Assembly: GCF_000242455.2 (NCBI RefSeq)
Contig: NC_019892.1
Span: 5,124,744 to 5,156,743, forward strand
Direction of reading: 5' to 3'
Source of the DNA: Singulisphaera acidiphila DSM 18658
GTDB lineage: Bacteria > Planctomycetota > Planctomycetia > Isosphaerales > Isosphaeraceae
DNA: 32,000 nt
A program made the translations under genes and the position numbers. Shown piece after piece: positions 336 through 30,791 of this stretch. The notes below the pieces were generated by a model. It worked only from the letters and a program-made list of their open reading frames with translations, was not told where the DNA came from and searched no databases. The number at the start of each line of letters is the position of its first letter. Position 1 is the first letter of the stretch.

Positions 336-630
336 CTTGAATCGCCTATCTTGCCAAGCGACATTTTCTGTACGGCTGGACAGATCACTGCGAATGGGCG
401 ATCTTAGCCGGGTGATTGCCAGCCGAACCATGGCGTCGTTCTGACCGCCGAGGGCGGCCTCCAAAGAAAGCCTTGCGGGTGACGTCGATCTTGCCGCGTG
501 CCTGGCGAGGTCGTCGGAGGCGGATTCGAGGATGTCGTCGGTCAGCGGGCCAATCAATCAGGGACTCAGAAATATTTCACTGCGGCGCGCGAATGCCTTG
601 GGAGCGACTTCACCGCCAGGAGGCCTGACG

Positions 631-1053
631 ATGAGCATAGAGGTCACCGTAGTCGGCGGAGCGGTCGCCGCCGCCATCGTAGCGGAATTGCAGAGGCAAG
701 AGGAAGAAGAGATGACTCCCTACAGCGACAAGGACCTGGCCGAGGGCTGGGAATTCAAAATCGTGCGCTCAACTCTGTGGGGGTTCCGCAAACCAGAGCA
801 GCTCCGCGCGGTGCTTGCGGAGGAGAAGAAGGGAGGGTGGGTACTTGTCGAGAAGTTCGATGATTCACGCATCCGCCTCAAACGTCCGGCCGGGACAAAG
901 ATCGAGGAGCGGGATTTCGAGGACGGGTATGACCCTTACCGCAGCACGACATGGGTCTCGGGTGAGAACCGACTGTTGATCGTCGCGATCGCGGCAGGTG
1001 CTCTGGCTTTGTTGTTCATCGGTACCGCCGTCACATTCATCGTAAGCCGTTGA
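631..1053 (+). CDS. Hypothetical protein with C-terminal TM helix (DUF4177-like core, tentative)
   Basis: An ATG at 631 is preceded by AGGAGG at 617-622. The core EGWEFKIVRS...GGWVLVEKFDDSRIRLKRP resembles DUF4177. The C-terminal hydrophobic stretch is LLIVAIAAGALALLFIGTAVTFIV. Confidence 0.5.
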   Translation: MSIEVTVVGGAVAAAIVAELQRQEEEEMTPYSDKDLAEGWEFKIVRSTLWGFRKPEQLRAVLAEEKKGGWVLVEKFDDSRIRLKRPAGTKIEERDFEDGYDPYRSTTWVSGENRLLIVAIAAGALALLFIGTAVTFIVSR

Positions 1054-1334
1054 GCAACGGGTCGCTGATTGATCGCTCTTTACCGATTGGACATCTGGCC
1101 CTCAAGCGACATCGCAACTGGACCTGATGCCGGTCAAGAAGTTGCGAAGGGTCGTGGCTTCCATGCGAAGTTTGTGGGCCTCGCTGGGACCAAGAATCTC
1201 GTAGTCACTGTCGGGCAGGCGGTCCGCCTTCCGCCTCGAATCAAGAACTTCCGCCGCTCCGCCTCCGAACGGGCTTTATGTTTCCCCTGGTCCGTGGCCT
1301 GCGACATCGAGGGCGGACGAGCGGACGTGGGCCG

Positions 1335-2246
1335 TCAGGAGCACGATTGGCGGCCGGCGCCGACCAGGTGGGTCAAGAATCCCTGGGCGGTCTCGGACAG
1401 GATGCACCCTTTGCGATGGATGAGGGAAAACCGTCTCTTCATGTCCCGTCCGACCAGGCGAACCATCGAGAGCAGGCCCGCCGAGACCTCCCACTGGATG
1501 ACGCTCTTCGACAGGACCGACACGCCCAACCCGGCCTCGACCGCTTTCTTCACACCCTCCATGTTGCCGAAGTCGAGGACTTCCGTCAGCCGCGTGCCGT
1601 TCCGACCGAGCCGGTCCTCGACGACCATCCGGGTCCCCGAGCCGATGGCGGTCGCCAGGAACGGCTCTTCGCGCAATTGCTCCGGGCGTATCCCCCGCGT
1701 CTGCGACGCCCACCTGTGCCCGGCGGGGACCGCCACCACAAGGTCGTCCGAGAAGAATACGGTCGCCACGAGCCGGTTGTCTCGGATGTCATGACCGACT
1801 AACCCGACGTCGAAGCTCTGGTCCAGGACGCGGGTCTCGACGGTGGCTGCGGGGAAGATCTCGAGCGTCGTCCTGACCTCGGGGTGGAGCGTTCGGAAGG
1901 AGGCCAGCAGCCCGGGGAGGATGTACAGCCCGGCGGTGAAAGTCGCGGCGAGGGGCAGGGTCGGCGCCGCATCGTGCAGCTCCCTGAGCCTGTCGTCCGC
2001 CCGGCCCAGGCAGGCCATGACCTCGCGGGTGGCTTCGTAGAGGATATGGCCCGCCCGGGTGAGGGCGACCGCACGGCCCCGCCGCTCGAACAGGGCGGCC
2101 CGGTAGTGTTTCTCCAATTGCTTCACATGCTTGCTGACGCCTGGCTGAGTCAGGTGTAGCACGCCGGCCGCTCGGGTGAAGCTCCCCTGACTGGCGACGG
2201 CGTGGAACACCCACAAGAGGTTGAGGTTCACCCTGTTGAACTGCAT
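1335..2246 (-). CDS. LysR-family transcriptional regulator
   Basis: The N-terminal HTH LNLLWVFHAVASQGSFTRAAGVLHLTQPGVSKHVKQLE is followed by a LysR substrate-binding-type C-terminus. The likely start is MQFNRV at 2246, with an alternative ATG at 2258. The ORF track extends it to 2327. Confidence 0.9.
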   Translation of the reverse strand: MQFNRVNLNLLWVFHAVASQGSFTRAAGVLHLTQPGVSKHVKQLEKHYRAALFERRGRAVALTRAGHILYEATREVMACLGRADDRLRELHDAAPTLPLAATFTAGLYILPGLLASFRTLHPEVRTTLEIFPAATVETRVLDQSFDVGLVGHDIRDNRLVATVFFSDDLVVAVPAGHRWASQTRGIRPEQLREEPFLATAIGSGTRMVVEDRLGRNGTRLTEVLDFGNMEGVKKAVEAGLGVSVLSKSVIQWEVSAGLLSMVRLVGRDMKRRFSLIHRKGCILSETAQGFLTHLVGAGRQSCS

Positions 2247-2440
2247 ATGAAATTCCATCGATGAGCAGAGACCGCTGGCGGGACACGGCTCAACCATAAC
2301 TGTAAGTGATGGGAACCATCGAAACAAGTCATTGGACGCATCCTCCGGTGGGCCCGTATGCTTACCTCAACATGGGCCATACGCCGTGCGTCGGTGTAGG
2401 CCATGCCATCGACGGACAGCCCGAGGAGTCGGGAGTTCCC

Positions 2441-3184
2441 ATGAAAATTGTTATTTTATCAGATGTGCACGGTAACTATGAAGCACTCCGGGCTCTGCCT
2501 GAAGAATATGACGAACTGTGGGTGCTTGGGGACCTCGTCGGCTACGGACCTCAACCGTGTGAGGTCATTGACGAGGTTCGCGCCAAGGCTAAGCTCACCG
2601 TCCGCGGGAACCATGACCACGCGGCCGTCCATCCCGGCGACCGGCGGTGGCGGCCTCGCTATCGGGCGACGGCCGAGGCCACCTGCCGCTACACGGCGTC
2701 GGTGCTGGACGGGGCCCAGCGGGGCTACCTGGGGGGGCTTCCTCTGTGGGCTGAATCCGAGCGGGACGGCACCCGGTTTTACCTGACGCATGCGACGCCT
2801 TCCGATCCCCTCTACGGCCGGTGTGCGACGGTCGAGGCGTGGGCCGAGGAGGTTGGGTTGGTGACGGCGGACGTCGTGCTCGTCGGCCACACGCATACCC
2901 CCTCCGTCCAACGGATTGGCGGCCGATTGCTGGTCAACCCGGGCAGCCTGGGGCAGCCCAAGTCCGGCCGATCCGCAGCCTGCTACGCCGTCTGGCAAGA
3001 CGGACGCATCGACCTTCGGTCGTTCGAATATCCCGTCGAGGCGACTGTCGAGCGGCTCCGAGCGTTGCGGTTCCCTCGGGACGTTGAGGAGGGCCTGGTG
3101 AGGACCCTTCGGACGGGTATCGACGGCTTGGCCATCGAATCGAGCGATGAGGGAGGAACACTAAAATCCCCTGAGGATGGGTAG
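2441..3184 (+). CDS. Calcineurin-like metallophosphoesterase (YfcE-like)
   Basis: MKIVILSDVHGN...VLGDLVGYG...RGNHD...GHTH contains the metallophosphoesterase motifs. The ATG at 2441 follows GGGAG. The gene is divergent from the LysR gene. Confidence 0.85.
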   Translation: MKIVILSDVHGNYEALRALPEEYDELWVLGDLVGYGPQPCEVIDEVRAKAKLTVRGNHDHAAVHPGDRRWRPRYRATAEATCRYTASVLDGAQRGYLGGLPLWAESERDGTRFYLTHATPSDPLYGRCATVEAWAEEVGLVTADVVLVGHTHTPSVQRIGGRLLVNPGSLGQPKSGRSAACYAVWQDGRIDLRSFEYPVEATVERLRALRFPRDVEEGLVRTLRTGIDGLAIESSDEGGTLKSPEDG

Positions 3185-3614
3185 CGTCCGTCAATCCAAT
3201 CCAAAATCTCGACAGAGCAGCGGTTGAAGCCTTCTTTCGTGGGCAGCGGATGCCGGAAACGATTCGGCAATTGACGGTTTGATTGGCCCAGCATCTTCCC
3301 AGGCCCCGCCCACCACCCCCCGCCACGACCACCACGGATTCTGCCGAAGCGCCCGGAATTGCCGGGTTTCCGGTTCTGCAACCGAAGCGGTCCGAGCCGT
3401 CGCCCAGGCAAAGGCGTCGGCCTCCCCTGGGCCGTCTGCCAGCACGGTCGGGCTGGGCTTTACAAACCCGCCAGGACTCCCCGCTCTTCCCTCTGGTTTG
3501 GCCCTGCGAGCAAACGAGCAAAGGCCGTCAGGGGCACACTGGGGCATGCATTGCACATTGAATCCTGTTATCAGAATTTGGTAGATCCCTTGGTTTCACC
3601 CAGAAGACACAACA

Positions 3615-3776
3615 ATGGCGATCGCTCACGCTCATCTCGTCGATCCCAACGTTACGCGATGCGTCCGGCGCGCCTTCCTGCTCGGCGAAGGCGGCTCTGA
3701 CCGGAAGCTGTGGATCGAAAATCGGCTTTAGGAGTTGGCCGGCCTTTTCTCCATGGCCGTCGGCGGGTTCGCCGTG
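3615..3776 (+). pseudogene. N-terminal fragment of an IS200/RAYT-like (Y1) transposase
   Basis: MAIAHAHLVDPNVTRCVRRAFLLGEGGSDRKLWIENRL, an in-frame TAG at 3729-3731, then ELAGLFSMAVGGFAV. This matches my recollection of the N-terminus of Y1 transposase-like proteins. The HxH catalytic region that should follow is absent. Confidence 0.45.
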
Positions 3777-3862
3777 CGCACCGGCCGCTCGGCACTCTGT
3801 GGCTTCGGAAAGCGTTCACGCGGCCGGGGCCGCTGCATCGCGAGGCAGGCATCGGGCGCCGG

Positions 3863-4351
3863 CTACGATGACGCGTGGTACGACCAGCCGCCGAACATCC
3901 ACACGAAGCCCAAGCTCAGTAGACTGTAGCTGAGACAATTGCCCAGGACGACGGGCATGACGATATGACGGAGGCCCGCCCGCTTTCGGACTGGGAGGAG
4001 GGTGACGGTTTCGATGATGGCGCTAACGATGCCCGCCTGGAGGAAGCTATATCGCGCGAGGCGCTGCCATTGGGGGCCGCGATCGAGGATGCCGTAGCCA
4101 TGCTCGTCGGGGTTGACGACGACGAGGCCGGAGCCGACGTAGAGCCGGGGCGAGAGCCAGGTGCCGATGACGTACGAAGCGATATTCATGACGAGGACGC
4201 AAGCGACGATCGCCTTGAATGATACGGAGCTGTTGAATGCCCGCAGGATCGCGCCTTCCGCGATCAGGACGCCGAGCGCAAGCGGGGCGAGGATGATCCA
4301 ACTGAAGTAAGCGGCCTGAAACGCGTGGAAGATGACATTTGCAACCAGCAT
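3863..4351 (-). CDS. Hypothetical integral membrane protein
   Basis: There are several hydrophobic helices starting at MLVANVIFHAFQAAYFSWIILAPLALGVLIA. The ATG at 4351 is preferred over the Arg-rich extension to 4540. No family was recognised. Confidence 0.5.
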   Translation of the reverse strand: MLVANVIFHAFQAAYFSWIILAPLALGVLIAEGAILRAFNSSVSFKAIVACVLVMNIASYVIGTWLSPRLYVGSGLVVVNPDEHGYGILDRGPQWQRLARYSFLQAGIVSAIIETVTLLPVRKRAGLRHIVMPVVLGNCLSYSLLSLGFVWMFGGWSYHASS

Positions 4352-4554
4352 GGGGACACGACTCCGACGCCTAACAACAGAACTCAGCGGACCACCTCGT
4401 CGAGCTGACCTTTTGGCCGCCATCGCCTTCCCTTTTCTTACGCCCGATCGCAACCAGGTCAAGCCGTCCTTGTCTGCTTCGGTCCGACACAATTGACGCG
4501 TATTCTGAGACCTTCTCGAACGCATCAGGGGATAACCCATTTGCTGCGGCCGGT

Positions 4555-4914
4555 TCAGCGGAATACGTCGACCTTTCCCACCTGAATGTCCTTGAATTTC
4601 TCTTCGGGTTTCTCGGCAAGCTCCTTCGTCAGGTTTGTAAACTTCCCTTGGTCCACCCGACCCGCGTCGCGCAATTCGCGATCCCTGGCCGCTGTTTCAA
4701 TGGCATGGGTGTCGAAAAGAGATCCTATTCTGAACGGGGCGCTGCCGGGGTGCAAGCGTCGGTCCGACACACCGCAAGCGATTAGGACAGGCTGCGCTGG
4801 CGAACGCAAAACGTCGACCGCCGGTGTCCGTTTAGAGTCTGTCCCATCCATAAGGGTGATAGGCAGCTCCGCTCGCGTTAGAATTACTGGATGCAGGTTG
4901 CGTTCTACTGCCAT
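4555..4914 (-). CDS. Hypothetical protein
   Basis: This is a 119-aa ORF with non-repetitive composition and lower GC than its surroundings. No family was recognised. Confidence 0.4.
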   Translation of the reverse strand: MAVERNLHPVILTRAELPITLMDGTDSKRTPAVDVLRSPAQPVLIACGVSDRRLHPGSAPFRIGSLFDTHAIETAARDRELRDAGRVDQGKFTNLTKELAEKPEEKFKDIQVGKVDVFR

Positions 4915-4928
4915 ATATTCTCTTGGCG

Positions 4929-5354
4929 ATGAGGGGATACGATCCCGTGGACGAATCCGACTATTGGGGGAGACTCGAGTATCGCGTCTGCCACGAACTC
5001 GCCGGGCTCAGTCACATCGTCGGTCGCCTTTACTGGTGTGATGGCTTCGTGCCGGACCAATACATCCTCGACGGCCCGAGCCCCTGCATTCTCGGCCGTG
5101 CCTGGTTGGTGATCGGTTCCAACTATGATGAGCTATGGGCGTTTACGCTGCTGCTCAATCGGTCGGTACTCTCAGTTGAGGAAATCGATTGGTCCGCACT
5201 ACTCCCGGCCGACGATGTGACGCGATGGCTCACTGTCGACCGAAAGCGCAAACAACTCATCCTCGAACCCTCGGTTGCCGTTCCCGACAAGGCACCCCCT
5301 ACTCTCGGGGTCAAGTTCAGCGGCATGGATCGTCCCGGCGGGCGGGCCTTTTGA
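4929..5354 (+). CDS. Hypothetical protein
   Basis: An ATG lies at 4929 (the ORF track starts at a TTG at 4923). The sequence YWGRLEYRVCHELAG...LYWCDGFVPDQYILDG has balanced composition. No family was recognised. Confidence 0.45.
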   Translation: MRGYDPVDESDYWGRLEYRVCHELAGLSHIVGRLYWCDGFVPDQYILDGPSPCILGRAWLVIGSNYDELWAFTLLLNRSVLSVEEIDWSALLPADDVTRWLTVDRKRKQLILEPSVAVPDKAPPTLGVKFSGMDRPGGRAF

Positions 5355-5363
5355 ATATCGACA

Positions 5364-6044
5364 TCATGCCGCCAGCGGCCTCGGATAGTGGAATTCAGCG
5401 CCCACGTCCGAGGGCTCAAGGCGATGGAGCATCAGCTGGATCATCGCCAGCTTGATGAACGCCTCCGACGACAGGACGGTCTTCTCGCGGTCTTTGGACA
5501 GCCGCCTGCAGAGGCCCAGCCAGGCGAACGTCCGTTCGTTCGTCCAGCGGATCGGCCGCTTCACCCAACCTCGCTTCCCCTCGGGGCGACGGATGATCCG
5601 AAGGTCCCACCCCGCGTTCTCATCGACCCACCGGTAGAGGTCGAAGTTGTGATACTTGGAGTCGGCGAACATCCGTGTCACCTTGCCCACCGGTTGATCG
5701 GCGAGCCGGGCGAACAGCGTCGGGGCGGTCGCCCCGTCGTCCGCCGAGGCCGCCGTCACCAGCACGGCCAGCAGCAAACCCATCATGGAATCCACGACGA
5801 TGTGGCGTTTCCGCCCGTCCACGTTCTTGGCGTTGTCGCGGCCTCGCTCCTCACCGCCGGAGGTCGCGTCGACCGACTGGCTGTCGACGCTGGCGGTGGT
5901 CCGGGGCTGATAGGGCTTCTCCCGGGTTCGGACCTTGCGGACGTCGGTCTTGCGGGGGCGCCCGCCGGGGTACACGGGGATGAAGGGTGCGATCAGGGCC
6001 CATTGCTCGTCGGTGACGTCGCTGGGGTAGTGATGGGTTCTCAT
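5364..6044 (-). CDS. IS5-family DDE transposase, in-frame internal-deletion derivative
   Basis: MRTHHYPSDVTDEQWALIAPFIP...GGRPRKTDVRKV joins directly to RTREKPYQPRTTASVDSQSV...GRKRHIVVD...ERTFAWLGLCRRLSKDRE. The roughly 60-aa segment normally found between these blocks (LRTGCQWRMLP...) is missing. Confidence 0.75.
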   Translation of the reverse strand: MRTHHYPSDVTDEQWALIAPFIPVYPGGRPRKTDVRKVRTREKPYQPRTTASVDSQSVDATSGGEERGRDNAKNVDGRKRHIVVDSMMGLLLAVLVTAASADDGATAPTLFARLADQPVGKVTRMFADSKYHNFDLYRWVDENAGWDLRIIRRPEGKRGWVKRPIRWTNERTFAWLGLCRRLSKDREKTVLSSEAFIKLAMIQLMLHRLEPSDVGAEFHYPRPLAA

Positions 6045-6106
6045 CCCCTTGCTACGTTGTCTAGCACCCACTTGTTCCACTTATGGGACGGACTCTTTAG
6101 AGAGAG

Positions 6107-6265
6107 CAGCATAGCGACGAGGTTGCCGGCCACGGCGCCGGCGATGGCGGCAAAGGCCGTCTTCCGCCCCGAGTTCACGGCATCGCCCACGATATAGGCC
6201 ACCCCTGGCTCGGGCAGGGTCGTGATAAGCAGTGCAGCCGTCAGGAATACCCAGGGCCAGCGCAC
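6107..6265 (-). pseudogene. LysE/RhtB-family exporter, N-terminal fragment truncated by the IS5-like element
   Basis: WPWVFLTAALLITTLPEPGVAYIVGDAVNSGRKTAFAAIAGAVAGNLVAMLLS resembles a LysE-family N-terminus with a GTG start near 6265. The frame then runs into IS-derived sequence at about 6105. No remainder of the gene lies downstream. Confidence 0.55.
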
Positions 6266-6481
6266 ATCAAATTCCCCTTGTTTTAAGGGAAAAACCGACT
6301 TGTTATCCTCGTCAAAGGCCCTTTTTGCAGGGCTGTTTTTGCAAAACCCCCTTGTTTTCAAGCAAATTAATGTGCGCTGGCCCTGCAGGAATACCAACCT
6401 GCGACTCGGGTCGATCCTCTGCGTATCCCTGATCGGGGGGACGGCCCGGCGCCGAGCCAGCAGGTCATCCCCCCGGGACCC

Positions 6482-8041
6482 TTACAGTTGCCGCAAGAAC
6501 GCCACCAGGTCCTGCTTTTCATCGTTCGTCAGCTTCAGCTCGAGGACGAGATTGAAGAACTCGACGGTGTCTTCCAGGGTCAGGCAGCGGCCGTCGTGCA
6601 TGTACGGCGGGCTGTCCTTGATGCCGCGAAGTGTGAAGGCCTTGATCGGGCCGTCGCCCGCCTCGTGTTCCAGGAAGCGCTCCAGGTGCAGGTCGTGCAT
6701 CTGATTGTCGAGGTACGACGGCGCCGGATGGCAGGCCGCGCACTGCGCCTTGCCGAAGAACAGCGTCTCGCCACGCCGCTCGCTCTCGGTCGCTTTCTCC
6801 GGGTCGAGGCGTCCCAGCGAGGTCAGCTTGGGCGCCGGCGGGAACGCGAGGATGTTCTGCATTTGGGCCATGTGCGACACCTGGATGCGATCCAGGATGT
6901 TCAGCCCTTTCTTGAACGCGTGGATCTCGTCGCCGTTGAAATAGGCCGTGCGCTGCTCGAACTCAGTGAAGTCCTCGACCGAGCGCAGGCTCCGCTTCGC
7001 CCCGTGGATCTGCTGGTTGAACAGGCCACGCAGGCTCACCGTATCCAGCCGCATGCGTCGCTGCTCGGGCCGGGTGTCGGGGTTGATGTGGAACTGCCCG
7101 CTGGTGTGTCCGTTGACGTGACAGTCGAAGCAGGTTACTCCCAGGCTGGGCTCGACGGTCTTGCGATCGTCGGTCGGATTGAACTCCTCCTGGGGGAACG
7201 GCGTCAGCAGCAGGCGCAGGCCGTCGAGCTGCACCGGCGTGATCAGGTCCTTGAACAGGCGGTAGTAGTTGTTGATCGAGACGACCTCGCCGCGTGAGAC
7301 GTCGCCCAGCTCGGGCCGGGTCTGGAGATACATCGCGGGCGGGAACTCGGGCAGGAAGGCCTCGGGCAAATCGAACTCGACGTCATAACGCTCCAGGCGC
7401 GGGAACATCTTGATCTGCATCCTGGGAAAGACCTGACCACCCAGCCCGCCCCCCTGCGCTGGATGGGGCAGCGACTTATATGGGAAGATGTCCCTGCGGC
7501 GGATCTCCGCCGGGCTCAACGCGGCCAGCGCCGCCCAGTCCATCCCCTCCGGCAGGCGGGCCGTGGGCCCCACCACCAGCGGCTTGCCCCGCGACATCGT
7601 GGCCGTCGAGTCGAGCTTGGGCTCGAGTTTGTAGCGGCTCTCGAGCAGTTTTCGCTGCCGCTCCAGGACCGCGGGCTTGTTGGCCACCGCCGCCTTGTAG
7701 ACGTCCTCGAAGGTCATCCCCGGACGCGATGCGCCCAGAGGGTCGCGGTAGAAGTCGAAGCCGTTCATGCCACCTTGTTCCGGCTGGTCGCCCAGGGACC
7801 CCGAGGAAGGAGTTGCCTTGCTCGGCGCGAAGATGTCGGACAGGTCATGTGCGGTCTTCTTCTGTTCCGGCCGCTCCTTCGGGACGTCCTGAGGCGTCTG
7901 GGCTTCCGCGATGGCGTCTCTCGGCCCTCTGGATGGCGAGGGAATCGCGTTCTGGCCGGCCGCGTAGTGCCCCCAGAGTGCGAGGCCGCCTACGAACAAG
8001 GCCGAGACGACTCCCGTAGCGAGACATCGTGGCGTCAGCAT
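6482..8041 (-). CDS. Di-haem cytochrome c peroxidase / MauG-family protein, secreted
   Basis: There are two CxxCH haem motifs (CFDCH and CAACH). The C-terminus has the CCP-type motif PPYMHDG. A hydrophobic signal-like N-terminus is present. Confidence 0.9.
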   Translation of the reverse strand: MLTPRCLATGVVSALFVGGLALWGHYAAGQNAIPSPSRGPRDAIAEAQTPQDVPKERPEQKKTAHDLSDIFAPSKATPSSGSLGDQPEQGGMNGFDFYRDPLGASRPGMTFEDVYKAAVANKPAVLERQRKLLESRYKLEPKLDSTATMSRGKPLVVGPTARLPEGMDWAALAALSPAEIRRRDIFPYKSLPHPAQGGGLGGQVFPRMQIKMFPRLERYDVEFDLPEAFLPEFPPAMYLQTRPELGDVSRGEVVSINNYYRLFKDLITPVQLDGLRLLLTPFPQEEFNPTDDRKTVEPSLGVTCFDCHVNGHTSGQFHINPDTRPEQRRMRLDTVSLRGLFNQQIHGAKRSLRSVEDFTEFEQRTAYFNGDEIHAFKKGLNILDRIQVSHMAQMQNILAFPPAPKLTSLGRLDPEKATESERRGETLFFGKAQCAACHPAPSYLDNQMHDLHLERFLEHEAGDGPIKAFTLRGIKDSPPYMHDGRCLTLEDTVEFFNLVLELKLTNDEKQDLVAFLRQL

Positions 8042-25136: not shown

Positions 25137-25803
25137 TCAATTCAGTTTGTAAATATGTGGTTTGAGATATGAACGATTCGGTCGAGCACGCGGACTCAGC
25201 AACCGTTGCAAGGCGCAACGGATCGCTGGGAGGGTGAGGCCCCGCTCAGTATCCCCTTTTTTCCCCGGCTGGGCCGGGTCGCGTTTCGCTCGGAGCTGTT
25301 CCAAGGCCAGGAAGTCGTAGGCCATCATCACCAGGCAGACATGGTGGTGGAAGCCACGCCTGGGGTGGCTCTCGAAATGATCCAGACCCAACTCGCCTTT
25401 CCTCGGCTGATAACCCTGCTCCACGGGCCAGCGAGTCATCCACAGTCGGCCCGCCCGCAATCGTCTTGTGGCCGGCGACAGGTTGCTGAAGGCGTACTTC
25501 GGCTTGCCGTCGGCCTGGTGCTCGATCAGCGGCCAGGTCGGTTCGGCACCGGAGCAGTCGTCCGTGGCCCAGCCACCGCCCGGTCAGGCCCGCAACCAGG
25601 CGAAGTGGCCTGTCAACTTCCCCTTGGTCCCTTCACGCCAGGCCACCTTCCGCAGGCGCGTGTTGGCAGCCAACTCTCTCAGGCTCACCGGCCGGGTTGC
25701 GCCTTCGGCCAACCGGGGCCGCTTCCGCGGTCGCCCACCGGTCCCGCCGGGCTTCTCGACCGGCCCCGGCAATTCCCACCTCGGCTCTTCGGTGAAGACG
25801 ACC
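25137..25803 (-). pseudogene. IS701-like (DDE_5) transposase, C-terminal part; in-frame TGA and internal deletion
   Basis: The frame reads VVFTEEPRWELPGPVEKPGG...VSLRELAANTRLRKVAWREGTKGKLTGHFAWLRA, a TGA at 25584-25586, then ...RLWMTRWPVEQGYQPRKGELGLDHFESHPRRGFHHHVCLVMMAYDFL. The block carrying the second catalytic Asp appears to be missing. Confidence 0.7.
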
Positions 25804-25884
25804 TGTTAAGTTCCCCGGTAAATGTCACTCCTTTTGACCCGCTATTTGTCACTACGGCTTGACCCGCTATTTTGTCACTACGGC
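25804..25884. repeat. Transposon left end with three TGTCAC-terminated subrepeats
   Basis: The subrepeats are TGTTAAGTTCCCCGGTAAATGTCAC (25804-25828), TCCTTTTGACCCGCTATTTGTCAC (25829-25852) and TACGGCTTGACCCGCTATTTTGTCAC (25853-25878), followed by TACGGC. This is a multi-site end architecture as in Tn7-like and Mu-like elements. Confidence 0.7.
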
Positions 25885-26055
25885 CCACCGGCCTTGGGAC
25901 TCGAATCTAGGGCACTGATCAGCATCGGGCGGCGAAAAATGTATGCAATTCTTGGATCGGAAGACATTTCACGCTTGCAAGTGGAAGACGGGACGGAGAC
26001 GATGTCGGCACTCTTGTAATCGACCCCAGACTTGAGCCATCCGCGAGGAGCAACC

Positions 26056-27003
26056 GTGACCGACTACCGCCAGCTTCTCGCGTGTTCCGACGCGGAGTTA
26101 GCCCGGATCGATCCGCTGGTGATGAACCTGCTGGTGGCCAAGAGCATCCCCATCCTGGCCGATCTCGACATCGCCCGCTACCAGAAGCTCGCCGATCAGT
26201 GGGCCGAGGCCGTGCGGCGGCGGCTGCCGGCTGCGGAGCGGGTTTTCTGGCAGACGCCACAGGACTGGAAGAACGACGTAAATTTCTTCCGCCTTGGCGT
26301 GCTCTGCGGCTACCTGGAGCACGAGGCGGGTATCTCCTACAATGAGGACCAGCGGTACGCCACGGCGATCCGCTACACGGACCCGTCGGACCTGTTCCTC
26401 AACGGTGTGATGGACACGCGCCAGGGCACCTGCGGCAACATGGCGGCGTTGCATGTCGCCCTCGGCTGGCGTCTAGGCTGGCCGGTGTCGCTGGCGTGCG
26501 TGCGGTCGCACTACATCTGCCGCTACGACGACGGCACGGTGACGCACAACATCGAGGCGACGCAGGCGGGCTACGGCGGGTTCAAGTCGGACCCGGATGA
26601 GTACCTGATCGAGCGTTACGAACTGCCGCCGAAGGCGATCAGCAGCGGCTCGGACTTGCGTGCGGTGAATCCGCGCGAGATGCTGGGTATCTTCCTGGGG
26701 TTCCGAGGTCGGCACATGCGGGACACGGACCGGTGGGACGAGGCGGAACGGGATTACCTTTTGGCCCGGCACCTGTTCCCGATGAACCGCAAGCTTTATG
26801 TTGACGCGATGGGCGTGGCGGTCGATCGGAGCGTTCGGCTGTTCGAGCCGGGCGAGTTGGAATCGCCGCAGAGCCTGGCGGATTGGCTGAACACACAGTA
26901 CCGGCCGGTCCGTCCGTTGGTGAGGATACAGACGAAGGATTTCCCGTTCCAGAATGTGTCCTACACGGCATCGGTGCGATCTTCCAAGGAGCAGCGGCCA
27001 TGA
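26056..27003 (+). CDS. Transglutaminase-like (SirB1-like) cysteine-protease-fold protein
   Basis: RQGTCGNMAALHVALGWRLGWPVSLACVRSHYICRY...HNIEAT fits the Cys/His/polar arrangement of transglutaminase-like domains. A GTG at 26056 follows AGGAGC. The stop overlaps the next start. Confidence 0.7.
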   Translation: MTDYRQLLACSDAELARIDPLVMNLLVAKSIPILADLDIARYQKLADQWAEAVRRRLPAAERVFWQTPQDWKNDVNFFRLGVLCGYLEHEAGISYNEDQRYATAIRYTDPSDLFLNGVMDTRQGTCGNMAALHVALGWRLGWPVSLACVRSHYICRYDDGTVTHNIEATQAGYGGFKSDPDEYLIERYELPPKAISSGSDLRAVNPREMLGIFLGFRGRHMRDTDRWDEAERDYLLARHLFPMNRKLYVDAMGVAVDRSVRLFEPGELESPQSLADWLNTQYRPVRPLVRIQTKDFPFQNVSYTASVRSSKEQRP

Positions 27004-27791
27004 TCAGCACACGAACGACTGGGCGGGGTGAAATGACGCTGAGTGGGTGGGACTGGGACGGCTCGTCGCTCGGGAGGGCAAGCTTAGCCGGGGCCGATCC
27101 GCTCGGATTCGCGGCAGGTGACACCAATCTCTACCGCTACGTGGGTAACAGTCCGACCAACTTCACTGACCCAACGGGTCTACAAACCGTACCGGGAAAC
27201 TACAAGCCGCACCCCTGGCCCGTTCCCGACCCGGCGAACACGATCGTCTTGATTGGCCCCCCCAAGTTCAAGAACGGCAAACCAGACCCGAATGACTCGA
27301 ACCCGTTCAAGCGTCAAGTGTGCCGTACCGCCGGCATTCCGGATCGGAATGTTTTCGACTACAATGGTATCCAATCGCTTCTCGATGCAGCGGAAAAAGC
27401 GAAAAAACTTGGGTTGAAGAAACCCCACGTCGTGACCTGGGGTCACGCCCGTCCGGGTGGGATTTTAGTCGGTGTCAACCCTGCTAACGGGTCATTCACC
27501 GATCGATTCGATAAGAATTCAGGTGCCGACACCCTGGGGAATCTACTAAAATCGCTAGGTGCAAAAGATTATTACAATCTTGGATGCAATACATTTGATT
27601 ACATAAACGCTAGCGGTCCTAACGGATGGGACTTTTTCAACGCCGTACAACAGGCGGCGGGCAACATTCCCATTTATGGTACGGTTGGCTACGACATGCC
27701 TGGGCAAAACCTTGACCAAGCCATCAACGGTGATCCGCCGAGTTGGTACATGGAACCTGGCGGTCACATCGTCGGCCATAAGCCCAAGTGA
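27000..27791 (+). CDS. Mini-Rhs polymorphic-toxin candidate: RHS core tip plus unassigned C-terminal domain
   Basis: The ATG at 27000 overlaps the upstream TGA (ATGA). Residues 26-61, GRASLAGADPLGFAAGDTNLYRYVGNSPTNFTDPTGL (27075-27182), are the conserved end of the RHS repeat-associated core. No YD-repeat shell precedes them. A ~200-aa AT-richer domain follows. Confidence 0.8.
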   Translation: MISTRTTGRGEMTLSGWDWDGSSLGRASLAGADPLGFAAGDTNLYRYVGNSPTNFTDPTGLQTVPGNYKPHPWPVPDPANTIVLIGPPKFKNGKPDPNDSNPFKRQVCRTAGIPDRNVFDYNGIQSLLDAAEKAKKLGLKKPHVVTWGHARPGGILVGVNPANGSFTDRFDKNSGADTLGNLLKSLGAKDYYNLGCNTFDYINASGPNGWDFFNAVQQAAGNIPIYGTVGYDMPGQNLDQAINGDPPSWYMEPGGHIVGHKPK

Positions 27792-27880
27792 TTTCGGCGA
27801 TGCTTAATCGAAGCGGCCCTTGCCCGACGCTTAGTGTTTTGAAATCGCTTCTCGCTAGCGTTGGACATCTGAGATTTAGC

Positions 27881-28438
27881 ATGAGGTCGCTGCTCGTCCT
27901 AATTGTATTCTTGGCACTGGTTCTGGCATTAGTCGTACAACAACACAGAGCGGCCGTGAGAATTCATTCACTCCGTTCAGAACTCGTCGAGGCCCAAGCA
28001 ATTCTTACCGCCTATGAGAGAATGCATGGTCTACTCGGAGACCGAGGGATCCATATCCTCAAAACCGCGACGCGCGTAGAAATTTTATGCGTTGGCCAAG
28101 GGGCAGGTTATCCGCGCACCCCGACGGGGGTGGACCTCGACAAGGCAGCTACGGATCAACTGAGCCAGGCGATACTTGATATAGATAATTATTCGCATTT
28201 AGATTCGGACGATATGCCGGTGCCACAAGCTGGCTTCCGGTTCCGAGGCGGTAATGCGTCTCTTGACATTCTGGTGAGTCTGGAAGGATCAAACGTAAAT
28301 TCGCCTCACGTTGATTTGTTTGTTTTTATTAATAATGAAGATGGTGCCTCGGAGTATCGAGGCCATGCCTGCATGTACAGTAAGCCACTGAATGATCTGC
28401 TTGTGAGCGTGGTAGCCTCAGGCGAGAATCTCCAATAA
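27881..28438 (+). CDS. Putative cognate immunity protein (N-terminal TM anchor)
   Basis: It lies immediately downstream of the toxin candidate and shares its low GC. It begins MRSLLVLIVFLALVLALVV. Alternative in-frame starts exist at GTG 27788 (GTGA overlap with the toxin stop) and ATG 27800. No family was recognised. Confidence 0.5.
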   Translation: MRSLLVLIVFLALVLALVVQQHRAAVRIHSLRSELVEAQAILTAYERMHGLLGDRGIHILKTATRVEILCVGQGAGYPRTPTGVDLDKAATDQLSQAILDIDNYSHLDSDDMPVPQAGFRFRGGNASLDILVSLEGSNVNSPHVDLFVFINNEDGASEYRGHACMYSKPLNDLLVSVVASGENLQ

Positions 28439-28467
28439 TCCCTCTCGCTTAGTTTTTTATAAAATGG

Positions 28468-28923
28468 TTATAATGGTTTACTAATGATCGTTGATATCCG
28501 GCTATCCAAAAGCTTCCGGCCGTCCGGGCGCAGGTTGTTGTTCGGATCGACATGGCGGTAGAGCGTTTGCCGGGTGATGCCCAACTCCGAGCACAGCATC
28601 CCCACCTTGGTATCCCGGCTGGCCATCGCCGCCATCGCCAGGCGGAGCTTGACGGCGGTCATGGTGTAGGGCCTGCCCCCGTTGCGGCCCTGAGCGCGAG
28701 CTGCGGCCATACCCGCTTTGGTTCGCTCGACGATCAGTTCCCGCTCGAATTCCGCCAGGGCGGCGAAGATGCCGAACACCAGCTTGCCGCTGGGTGAGGT
28801 GGTATCGATGCTGGCCCCGTGGCTGGACAGCACCTTGAAGCCGATGCCGCGTGCGGTCAGGTCATGCACCGTGTTGACCAGATGCCGCAGATCACGGCCG
28901 AGGCGGTCGAGCTTCCAGACCAC
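28468..28923 (-). CDS. Serine recombinase (resolvase/TniR-like), N-terminally truncated and lacking the catalytic Ser region
   Basis: It starts at (LV)VWKLDRLGRD and contains FGIFAALAEFERELIVERTKAGMAAARAQGRNGGRP and the HTH LGITRQTLYRHV. The roughly 45 N-terminal residues with the nucleophilic Ser are absent. Confidence 0.8.
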   Translation of the reverse strand: MVWKLDRLGRDLRHLVNTVHDLTARGIGFKVLSSHGASIDTTSPSGKLVFGIFAALAEFERELIVERTKAGMAAARAQGRNGGRPYTMTAVKLRLAMAAMASRDTKVGMLCSELGITRQTLYRHVDPNNNLRPDGRKLLDSRISTIISKPL

Positions 28924-29806
28924 CAGCCCGGTCCGCTTGCGTCCGGGAAAAGCCGGGCAGCCGCGACAGGAGCACCTGCGCGAGCGAATCGAAGAAACGC
29001 TCGATCTTCCCCCGCCCGCGCGGGCGGGCCACGGTGGAGTTGATTAGGCGGATTTTCAGGTCGGCGGATACCTGTTCGAGATGCCGGGAGGTGAAGTCGC
29101 TGCCGTGATCGGAATAGAGCACCTGCGGGATGCCGCAGACGTGCCAGCCCGGTTGCGACTTCCGCCAGATCGCCTGCCGCAGCGCCAGGGCCGTCTGGAT
29201 CGATGACGGGGCCGCCAGCGACAGGCAAAAGCCCGCCACCGCCCGGCTGTAGTCGTCGAGGATGATCGTCAGCCAGGGCCGGCGTGCCGTACCGTCGCCA
29301 TCCTTGATGAGGATGTCGAGTTCGGTGTGATCGGCTTGCCAGATGGCGTTGGGTGCGGTCGCTTCATGGTGATGGACCAGGTCGAAGGACTCGCTATACG
29401 CCTTCGATCCCTCATGCGCCAGCGCCAGCAAGGCCGGCTCCAACTCGCCGACCACGGTGCGGACCACCTTATCGCTCGGCGGCTCCTGGCCCAATTTCCT
29501 CGCGGCGTCGGCCACCTCGCGGTGGATGGTCGCCGTCGGCATCCTGGGCTTACGCAACGCCAGCCCCTCGATGAGTTGCCGGAGGGGAGCCGCCAGCTTC
29601 CTCTTATCCTTGTCGTTCCGCTCCTTGCGGGCCAAACCAGCCAAGCCTTCCCGGCGGTAGCGATTGACCCTGCGGCGTGCGGTGCGGAGAACGAGCCCTT
29701 GATCCTGGGCGATCTGCGTCAGCGGGCCGCCATCTTCCAGGAAGGGACGGATGATCTGGAACCACGCGAAGGCACGCAACCGGCCCTCGTCGGGCAGGCT
29801 ACTCAA
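28892..29806 (-). CDS. TniA/TnsB-like (Mu-type, rve) DDE transposase, C-terminally truncated
   Basis: There is an N-terminal HTH region. The DDE core reads WQADHTELD ... VLYSDHGSDFTS ... RGRGKIERFF. The frame ends about 20 aa after LPGF by running out of frame into resolvase DNA. The start is a TTG at 29806. Confidence 0.75.
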   Translation of the reverse strand: MSSLPDEGRLRAFAWFQIIRPFLEDGGPLTQIAQDQGLVLRTARRRVNRYRREGLAGLARKERNDKDKRKLAAPLRQLIEGLALRKPRMPTATIHREVADAARKLGQEPPSDKVVRTVVGELEPALLALAHEGSKAYSESFDLVHHHEATAPNAIWQADHTELDILIKDGDGTARRPWLTIILDDYSRAVAGFCLSLAAPSSIQTALALRQAIWRKSQPGWHVCGIPQVLYSDHGSDFTSRHLEQVSADLKIRLINSTVARPRGRGKIERFFDSLAQVLLSRLPGFSRTQADRAGGLEARPPRP

Positions 29807-29896
29807 AGTGGCGGGGACCGATTCCGGATCTGATGGTATTTAAGATATGAAAAAATTAGGATGCGATCTGAGATTCGCCTTCGTCAATCACTCAGG

Positions 29897-29945
29897 GTGA
29901 CAAATAGCAGGGCAAAAGAAGTGACACTTACCGGGGAATTTAACA
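29897..29945. repeat. Transposon right end with two subrepeats
   Basis: GTGACAAATAGCAGGGCAAAAGAA then GTGACACTTACCGGGGAATTTAACA. This is the reverse complement of the first two left-end subrepeats. Confidence 0.7.
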
Positions 29946-30070
29946 AGACGACCATCTCGTCGGTGACACCGACGATGTCTCTCAGGCCGCGCGCCGCTCG
30001 TGGTCCATCAAACTCGATTTTGCGGCGTTTCCATCGCCCCCAGACTGCCGAGTTTGCTAAGATTCACCCC
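29946..30070 (-). pseudogene. IS701-like transposase, upstream part separated by the transposon insertion
   Basis: The minus-strand frame reads ...FDGPRAARGLRDIVGVTDEMVV. It continues in frame into FTEEPRWEL at 25803 once the transposon and one AGACGACC copy are removed. Confidence 0.55.
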
Positions 30071-30263: not shown

Positions 30264-30581
30264 GTGCGCGTTCCGAAGTTCCGTATCCGAACCTTGATGA
30301 TCGCCGTGGCGGTTCTGGGAATCGCGTTCGGCGGCCATGCAGGTTTTCAGCGAATGAACCAGCGGATGCAAAGGTTCCTCTTCCTGGCACGGCATCATCT
30401 ACAGCAGGGCGTTGTCAACCGCCTTCACTTGGAAGGATTGGTGGCGCATGGGGCCGCGAAGGCCGACATCGAGAAGTATCGGATGCGTTCTGAATATCAT
30501 CATGCACTCAGTCTGAAATACAAATATGCTTCCCGCCACCCGTGGCTTGCGGTTTCGTCAGACCCACCCGAACCCAGGTGA
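30264..30581 (+). CDS. Small membrane-anchored protein of a Planctomycetota-typical family
   Basis: A GTG at 30264 follows GGAG. The protein has RVPKFRIRTLMIAVAVLGIAF, EYHHALSLKYKYASRHPWLAVSSDPPEP. Confidence 0.6.
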   Translation: MRVPKFRIRTLMIAVAVLGIAFGGHAGFQRMNQRMQRFLFLARHHLQQGVVNRLHLEGLVAHGAAKADIEKYRMRSEYHHALSLKYKYASRHPWLAVSSDPPEPR

Positions 30582-30593
30582 AAGACAACCGCC

Positions 30594-30672
30594 ATGCCCC
30601 GCTTCCGGATACAGACGCTGATGATCCTGGTGGCGGTCACGGCACTGTTTTTCTGGGATGCGACGGCCCATC
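30594..30672 (+). pseudogene. Truncated paralogue of the preceding gene (N-terminal 26 aa only)
   Basis: MPRFRIQTLMILVAVTALFFWDATAHP then runs into IS630-derived sequence. Confidence 0.35.
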
Positions 30673-30750
30673 CGGTCTTGTTCCGGCGGGAATGCCTCGT
30701 ACAGCGACGCCAGCTTGTGCGTGTTCAGATTGTCCATCACCAACAGTTGT
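30673..30750 (-). pseudogene. IS630-family transposase internal fragment
   Basis: LLVMDNLNTHKLASLYEAFPPEQ matches the conserved DDE-region block of IS630/Tc1-like transposases. No flanking transposase sequence is present. Confidence 0.5.
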
Positions 30751-30791
30751 CTTGATCCGCCGGAAGCACACGCCGATCCACGTCTTCGGGC

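Follow-up and report, generated by a model that had tools for sequence, protein, structure and literature searches.

The element and its target site

A 32-kb stretch of the Singulisphaera acidiphila chromosome, referred to here as the window, carries at positions 25804-29945 a transposon with inverted TG...CA ends, an 8-bp direct repeat at its flanks, remnants of two transposition genes, and a cassette of the toxin-immunity type. As the comparisons below indicate, it is very probably a disabled element from a planctomycete clade of the Tn552 family, with an 8-bp target duplication and toxin-type cargo. Its boundaries and its target are as follows:

25804-29945: transposon, whole, 4,142 bp, Singulisphaera acidiphila chromosome
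25804-25852, plus strand: left terminal inverted repeat, with terminal unit TGTTAAGTTCCCCGGTAAATGTCAC and subterminal unit ...GACCCGCTATTTGTCAC, the presumed TnpA binding sites
25853-25878, plus strand: third TGTCAC-terminated unit, a 25/26-bp tandem duplication of the subterminal unit
29897-29945, minus strand: right terminal inverted repeat, two units, from repeat and motif searches and the homology of relatives
25796-25803: left copy of the target-site duplication, AGACGACC, 8 bp, abutting the left terminus
29946-29953: right copy of the target-site duplication, AGACGACC, 8 bp, abutting the right terminus
25137-25803, minus strand: target, C-terminal part of a decayed IS701-family transposase gene, with one in-frame stop
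29954-30050, minus strand: target, upstream part of the same IS701 remnant, whose frame joins 25803 after removal of the element and one repeat

The two terminal repeats match at 44 of 49 positions in inverted orientation (five differ), and TGTTAA starts both. A repeat finder returned inverted arms at 25799-25852 and 29897-29950 (54 nt, 87% complementary); the terminal 25-mer occurs at these two sites only in the 32 kb, with 0.00 expected in shuffles, and the subterminal unit is found only at the two element ends within the window. Homology to at least five independent relatives (L001/L002, L003, L004, L111, L113, L131 and others) starts exactly at TGTTAA, which opens the element end in the window copy (TGTTAAGTTCCCCGGTAA), and the flanks outside are unrelated; the termini are therefore the TG...CA ends, and the 8-mers are target DNA. 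Each TG...CA end carries two directly repeated motifs, a pattern that would suit TnpA binding. These ends and their identical flanks had been described in an original prediction made from the letters of the window, and direct reading and the repeat search bear that description out; its assignment to transposons of the MuA/TnsB/TniA-type DDE superfamily with multi-site ends is supported as well. Its count of TGTCAC-ending units, three at the left (ending at 25828, 25852 and 25878) and two at the right, is also correct, but the third left unit is part of a local tandem duplication (repeat spacings 25 and 26 nt) that is not present in the relatives, whose ends have two units each. Elsewhere in the clade, at L039 14600-14840, a degenerate right end is followed by ...GGGGAAGTTAACA and GCACGCATG and, beyond these, by a new left end TGTTAAGTGACTCGCTATTTGTCAT; such nested or abutting ends indicate that related elements inserted repeatedly beside one another's ends.

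The occurrence of an exact 8-mer at both junctions by chance has a probability of about 1.5e-5. The gene in which it lies is an IS701 transposase remnant, and not the res site of a resolvase; the remnant lacks its N-terminal half and has one in-frame stop. When 25804-29945 and one 8-mer are excised in silico, the IS701 frame reads through the junction as ...GVTDEMVVFTEEPRW..., and positions 203-362 of the IS701 profile hidden Markov model (HMM) align unbroken across it (E 8.5e-25), a continuity of frame and profile that served as a surrogate for an uninterrupted IS701 paralogue. Because eight is not a multiple of three and the frame is nonetheless continuous, one copy of AGACGACC was probably present in the target before insertion. 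The same reconstructed empty site cannot separate an 8-bp from a shorter duplication, since all models predict an identical pre-insertion sequence. In the same patch as the truncated IS701 remnant lie two adjacent small plus-strand open reading frames (30264-30581 and 30594-30755) that match no family and have in common the N-terminal motif M-R/P-x-F-R-I-R/Q-T-L-M-I-x-V-A-V.

The transposition genes and an internal deletion

Reading inward from the right end, the element retains parts of two genes, fused by a deletion:

28892-29806, minus strand: tnpA remnant, 304 aa, with helix-turn-helix domains and rve DDE core intact and Mu-transpos_C missing
28468-28926, minus strand: serine resolvase remnant, PF00239 positions 69-144 only, the first ~65 residues including the catalytic serine lost
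28927-28929: internal deletion junction, equal to the loss of L111 10921-12781, 1,861 bp

Alignment to L001, L111, L113 and L131 places the junction between about codon 307 of tnpA and about codon 63 of tnpR, past which the tnpA remnant reading frame runs out of frame. Lost are the TnpA C-terminal domain, the whole of tnpB, the tnpB-tnpR spacer where res would be expected, and the 5′ end of tnpR. Since each breakpoint falls within coding sequence, the resolvase was not responsible for the deletion. What remains of the transposition genes is 81-91% identical to intact relatives and has no further stops: the tnpA remnant is 100% identical to an annotated S. acidiphila protein and 91% to the intact 496-aa P0002, and the resolvase remnant aligns at 81-90% identity with the relatives' intact resolvases. 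In this state the window copy would be unable to transpose or resolve by itself, and any movement would depend on an intact relative to mobilise it.

Internally deleted derivatives are common among Tn552-family elements (PMC3276174). At L003 10001-11575 lies another, in which the tnpA frame enters the last ~45 resolvase codons to give a called product of 524 aa; since this derivative is independent, tnpA::tnpR fusions recur in the clade. The idea that L003 shares the deletion of the window copy, which would have implied mobilisation in trans, was rejected because its junction differs. Also set aside was a truncation of the tnpR 3′ end by the cargo junction, as resolvase C-terminal tails are naturally variable.

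Placement within the Tn552 family

The intact relatives L001, L111, L113, L115 and L131 are organised as tnpA-tnpB-tnpR, a constant module composed of a tnpA product of 496 aa, an AAA_22 ATPase of 315-317 aa, a spacer of ~160-200 bp and a serine resolvase of 208-215 aa, followed by cargo. Homologues up to 91% identical are likewise 496 aa long and possess the extra Mu-transposase C-terminal domain. No TniQ appears in the gene lists of these five relatives, nor do TnsA, TnsD/TniQ or TnsE. The transposase of an intact relative, P0002, aligns over its full length with the 480-aa p480 of Tn552 at 44% identity (E 4e-149), and the relatives' ATPase with p271 at 40% (E 1e-82). By comparison, identity is 27.5% over 344 aa to TniA from integron/Tn402 contexts (E 4e-16) and ~27% to TnsB of Tn7; the nearest solved structure is TnsB of the type V-K ShCAST (E 6.7e-45, residues 18-460), and TnsB of Tn7 is likewise among the best matches of known structure. 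Given the strong p480 and p271 matches, the weak TniA and TnsB matches and the lack of tniQ, the element belongs to the Tn552 family rather than to Tn5053/Tn402. The original prediction was right about the remnants of a DDE gene and a resolvase gene, both now confirmed by profile matches and alignment, and wrong in reading them as a tni module: the five intact relatives are tnpA-tnpB-tnpR and their TnpA is nearer p480. It had looked to intact relatives with tniB and tniQ, and intact relatives do exist, with tniQ in none of the five.

The likeness to Tn552, the beta-lactamase transposon of Staphylococcus aureus (p480, p271, BinL), extends beyond transposase (44%) and ATPase (40%) to a serine resolvase 37% identical to that of the pMW2 copy, to TGT...ACA termini with directly repeated subterminal motifs, and to a duplication that exceeds 5 bp and is somewhat variable. 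Tn552 prefers res sites, whereas the target here is an insertion sequence (IS) gene; its cargo is resistance genes, whereas here a planctomycete hosts a polymorphic-toxin cassette. With Tn5053/Tn402 (tniA-tniB-tniQ-res-tniR) the element shares the DDE superfamily, an AAA+ partner, a serine resolvase, a similar gene order and multi-repeat TG...CA ends, but it differs in lacking TniQ, in its 27.5% identity to TniA, and in a duplication of 8 bp, not 5. Type V-K CRISPR-associated transposons (CASTs) and Tn7 also make 5-bp target duplications; unlike them, this clade has no TnsA, TniQ/TnsD or CRISPR module.

Relatives 48-93% identical occur in genomes labelled Planctomycetota, Verrucomicrobia, Acidobacteria, Cyanobacteria, Actinobacteria and Proteobacteria, and none were found in the viral contigs scanned. 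A distant relative, a 3.1-kb tnpR/tnpA/tnpB element present in identical form on several plasmids of one Methylobacterium fujisawaense strain (L126-L128, 11165-14296), adjoins plasmid resolvase genes. In L127 one flank is an inverted duplicate of the other, which fits res-site hunting followed by inversion.

Duplication length across the clade

The flanking duplications of elements with identifiable ends are as follows:

Window copy, 25804-29945: AGACGACC, 8 bp
L111, 9906-15969, close relative with TGTTAA ends: GTTCTCGC, 8 bp
L131, 5488-9595, close relative: AACCTGAC, 8 bp
L113, 9905-16082, close relative: TGCATG, 6 bp
L112, 5267-10301, close relative: no flanking repeat
L039, 8149-17928, close relative: no flanking repeat
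L015, 8360-18660, sister clade, TnpA 65% identical: CAATG, 5 bp
Tn552 in pMW2 (L123), 573-7118, family prototype: TAATTGT, 7 bp

Eight base pairs is thus the commonest value, seen in three of the four clade elements that show any duplication, and the 8-bp duplication originally claimed for the window copy, where AGACGACC abuts both ends, recurs in the intact L111 and L131. Six-base-pair duplications are reported for Tn552 and for the Tn552-like Tn6870 (PMC3276174, PMC7698968), and one study describes apparent 10-bp repeats at res sites (PMC3276174). Our literature searches returned nothing on 8-bp duplications in Tn552-like elements. The value found here is longer than that reported for the Tn552 family, which is evidently flexible in duplication length. 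The original prediction had taken it as the mark of a distinct lineage; it does set the element apart from Tn5053/Tn402 and Tn7, but the lineage so marked is a clade within the Tn552 family, the 8 bp being a shift within a flexibly spaced family and not a superfamily-level division. Elements without duplications are to be expected, because resolvase-mediated inversions and deletions between transposon res and target res have been described for Tn552 (PMC3276174).

Distant relatives (80 genome loci, 48-70% identity) were left out of the clade duplication length; survey of these 80 loci mostly gave no duplication call, either the right end not being found within 10 kb or no flanking repeat being present. 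A metagenome scan with the degenerate terminal repeat yielded 18 loci with one end each, which were not used for duplications; identical flanks are joined there to different interiors, so the assemblies break or cross at the inverted repeat. No simple duplication was found for the Stanieria and Methylobacterium plasmid elements.

Several loci of this survey merit separate mention. At L029 9605-13569, the 10-bp CGAAACTATA stands on both sides, with a gap of 1 bp to the left terminus and one of 5 bp to the right terminus. Complete 2.45-kb IS-like copies with tnpA and tnpB alone, ~50% identical in TnpA, occur in Acidobacteria metagenome-assembled genomes (MAGs; L059, L060, L065, L066, L068), with TGT...ACA ends of two or three subrepeats and no flanking duplication. 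In a Granulicella MAG (OZ196154.1), two 2.49-kb copies with only tnpA and tnpB (L061 and L062, 9933-12418) lie ~12 kb apart in direct orientation; their outer flanks have CGCGGG in common and their inner flanks are unmatched, which fits a move as a composite unit.

The toxin-type cassette

The cargo occupies the left part of the element and reads on the plus strand:

25970-26012, plus strand: upstream motif CTTGCAAG ... GACGAT, putative cassette promoter, also 5′ of homologues in L119 and L121
26032-27003, plus strand: Transglut_core2 (transglutaminase-like) gene, PF13369, E 5e-10, first cassette gene
27000-27791, plus strand: short RHS-tip ('mini-RHS') polymorphic toxin, putative, 263 aa
27881-28438, plus strand: putative immunity gene, 185 aa, hydrophobic N-terminus, directly after the toxin gene

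The start of the presumed toxin gene overlaps the stop of the Transglut_core2 gene (ATGA). The first ~65 aa of its product appear to form an RHS core tail (DPLGF...DPTGL), in which the DPxGL motif is invariant in the toxin alignment; the C-terminal domain is variable, and an identical protein is named RHS repeat-associated core protein by NCBI. The proteins of the cargo, like the tnpA remnant, have identical counterparts among annotated S. acidiphila proteins. Within that C-terminal domain, an invariant His149 and Cys196 follow predicted beta strands (GHxxPG ... GC). Structure prediction was of low confidence (mean predicted local distance difference test score, pLDDT, 54), and a fold search gave nothing at E ≤ 0.001, with weak recurrent matches to clan-CD peptidases (MARTX CPD, legumain, MALT1). 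The product of 27881-28438 has no family match in profile searches; its position after the toxin gene and its low G+C suggest a role in immunity. From 27350 to 28500, a range that takes in the C-terminal domain of the presumed toxin, the putative immunity gene and the gap up to the resolvase remnant, G+C is 45-52%, compared with 60-68% in the rest of the element, and this low G+C of the variable part fits a recent foreign origin. As originally claimed, then, the cargo appears to be of the toxin-immunity type, with a putative RHS-tip toxin and a candidate immunity gene. No full-length RHS protein was found among the ten large open reading frames outside the element that were scanned with Pfam.

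The same pair of genes recurs both in and out of transposons, at the following loci:

Window: 26032-28438
L119: 5057-6846
L121: 5051-6537
L122: 320-1800
L111: 13257-14654
L115: 13335-14864
L093: 14-1352

A Transglut_core2 gene (~307-334 aa) precedes a gene for a protein with the last ~40-65 RHS-core residues and a variable C-terminal domain, and the two are adjacent in 7/7 inspected loci where both genes lie in the recovered DNA. At the transposon-free loci L119 and L121/L122, homologues 85-88% identical to the Transglut_core2 protein of the window each precede a short protein whose N-terminus agrees with that of the presumed window toxin and whose C-terminal domain differs; the DNA matches that of the window at 83% between 26042 and 27142/27185, beyond which the similarity ends. 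Such a conserved 5′ block with an abrupt break is the signature by which a polymorphic-toxin locus would be recognised. In L111, L115 and L093, which belong to the transposon clade, a Transglut-like gene ~29% identical is followed by MSYDPTIGRF...DPxGL proteins of 126, 170 and 255 aa, and in L001/L002 a Transglut-like gene (~29% identical in L001) lies at the contig end. The cassette type thus occurs in at least three other clade elements as well as at transposon-free loci, and the toxin C-terminal domains differ among L119, L121, L111, L115 and L093. The mini-RHS protein of L093 passes Rhs_assc_core at 46.4 bits; that toxin, at L093 585-1352, has a HELSH (HExxH-like) motif, which suggests a metallopeptidase-type tip unlike that of the window. 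Matching lengths of the longest contigs that hold Transglut_core2 and toxin homologues suggest at least 11 more pairs on shared contigs. Cargo of other kinds, for example a peptidase together with MazE/PIN genes or else a methyltransferase, is found in other clade elements.

The cassette resembles orphan Rhs/polymorphic-toxin modules in its apparent RHS-core end (DPxGL), variable C-terminal domain and small downstream gene, and differs from them in that the toxin gene has its own start codon, is preceded by Transglut_core2 in the inspected loci, is transposon-borne and has no full-length rhs nearby. Literature searches returned nothing on a transglutaminase-like plus mini-RHS cassette, and nothing linking Transglut_core2 to Rhs toxins. 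It is conceivable, though on balance we doubt it, that Transglut_core2 and the RHS-tip toxin constitute an undescribed two-component polymorphic-toxin system in Planctomycetes, with the 8-bp-stagger Tn552-family clade as a dedicated vehicle that spreads toxin-immunity tips between genomes. The idea is tenable because the pair is adjacent, translationally coupled in the window, and recurrent in and out of transposons. The transglutaminase-like cysteine-enzyme fold would then be the obligate partner of the toxin and might process it at the DPxGL site, act in its loading or export, or stand in for the missing RHS shell.

Proposed mechanism and alternative explanations

In the mechanism that we propose, TnpA would bind two ~24-bp sites at each TG...CA end, TnpA together with TnpB would join both 3′ ends to the two target strands at positions 8 bp apart, and gap repair would duplicate these 8 bp, here AGACGACC in a decayed IS701-family transposase gene. 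An illegitimate deletion of ~1.86 kb, visible in the alignments, fused tnpA to tnpR, either before or after insertion. A number of observations weigh against a defective Tn552-family element with 8-bp duplication and toxin-type cargo. The binding of the transposase to the subrepeats and the 8-bp stagger are both read from sequence patterns. A single copy is seen within the 32-kb window, and 8 bp is not invariant in the clade, L113 having 6 bp and L112 and L039 none. The inverted repeats measure 49-54 bp, versus ~116-120 bp in Tn552, and tnpA-tnpB-tnpR reads inward from the adjoining end, whereas binL-p480-p271 in the pMW2 copy of Tn552 reads toward the end, the opposite direction. As for the cargo, the toxin scores 28.9 bits for Rhs_assc_core, below the 32.5 cut-off, and the toxin and immunity activities are predictions.

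Were the element instead of the Tn5053/Tn402 type, a new lineage with an 8-bp duplication that had lost tniB, tniQ and res, the transposase-ATPase-resolvase order from one end, which resembles tniA-tniB-(tniQ)-res-tniR, and the rve plus Mu-transpos_C architecture common to TnpA and TniA would be accounted for. That origin is extremely improbable in view of the absence of tniQ from all five intact relatives and of the sequence comparisons, in which TniA at 27.5% is far behind p480 at 44% and the ATPase is 40% identical to p271. Only slightly more credible, and still very unlikely, is a true duplication of 5-7 bp, as in Mu, Tn7, Tn5053 and Tn552, with the extra identical bases coincidental or belonging to the element. 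The 6 bp of L113, the 5 bp of L015 and the 6-7 bp of Tn552 (PMC3276174) lend it precedent, and the empty site alone does not discriminate between the models; yet conservation among relatives starts at TGTTAA, two more independent elements, L111 and L131, have exact 8-bp repeats, and three cases each with 1-3 chance matches would be improbable.

The remaining alternatives concern the history of the locus. If 25804-29945 were not one transposition unit, and recombination had united two solo ends of unrelated origin, or pieces of two elements, with 8-mers that match fortuitously at the flanks, one could explain why the cargo is inverted relative to tnpA in comparison with L001, L111 and L115, why the left end is like the relatives' tnpA-proximal ends, and why L112 and L039 are without duplications. 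To this history we attach next to no credence: excision restores the IS701 frame and its HMM alignment, and the 8-mers abut both termini, at a chance of ~1.5e-5. Unlikely, but to be taken more seriously, is that the deletion came first and the resulting non-autonomous derivative then inserted here, with an intact copy acting in trans, a history that differs from the main reading only in the order of events. Both ends and both pairs of binding sites are intact, the remnant reading frames have acquired no further disabling mutations, and tnpA::tnpR fusion deletions recur independently (L003). However, this junction turned up in no second copy, that of L003 being different, and no intact TnpA named as S. 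acidiphila is among the best 120 homologues.

Implications

The findings overturn no known principle. What they add is limited but genuine: a clade in which an 8-bp stagger recurs, a gene orientation and shorter inverted repeats unlike those of Tn552, and a recurrent toxin cassette. Three of the features described here go beyond the original prediction: the 1.86-kb internal deletion, the local duplication behind the third left subrepeat, and the repeated appearance of the toxin cassette as a passenger in this clade. The Tn552 family reaches well beyond the resistance plasmids of Gram-positive bacteria, and its recurrent cargo points to a transposon-borne traffic in polymorphic toxins and to an uncharacterised partner protein. 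Duplication length mirrors how far apart the two strand-transfer sites lie in the transpososome; closely related transposases with 5, 6, 7 and 8 bp provide a natural series on spacing in TnsB/MuA-type enzymes, a question that touches the enzymes engineered in CRISPR-associated transposons.

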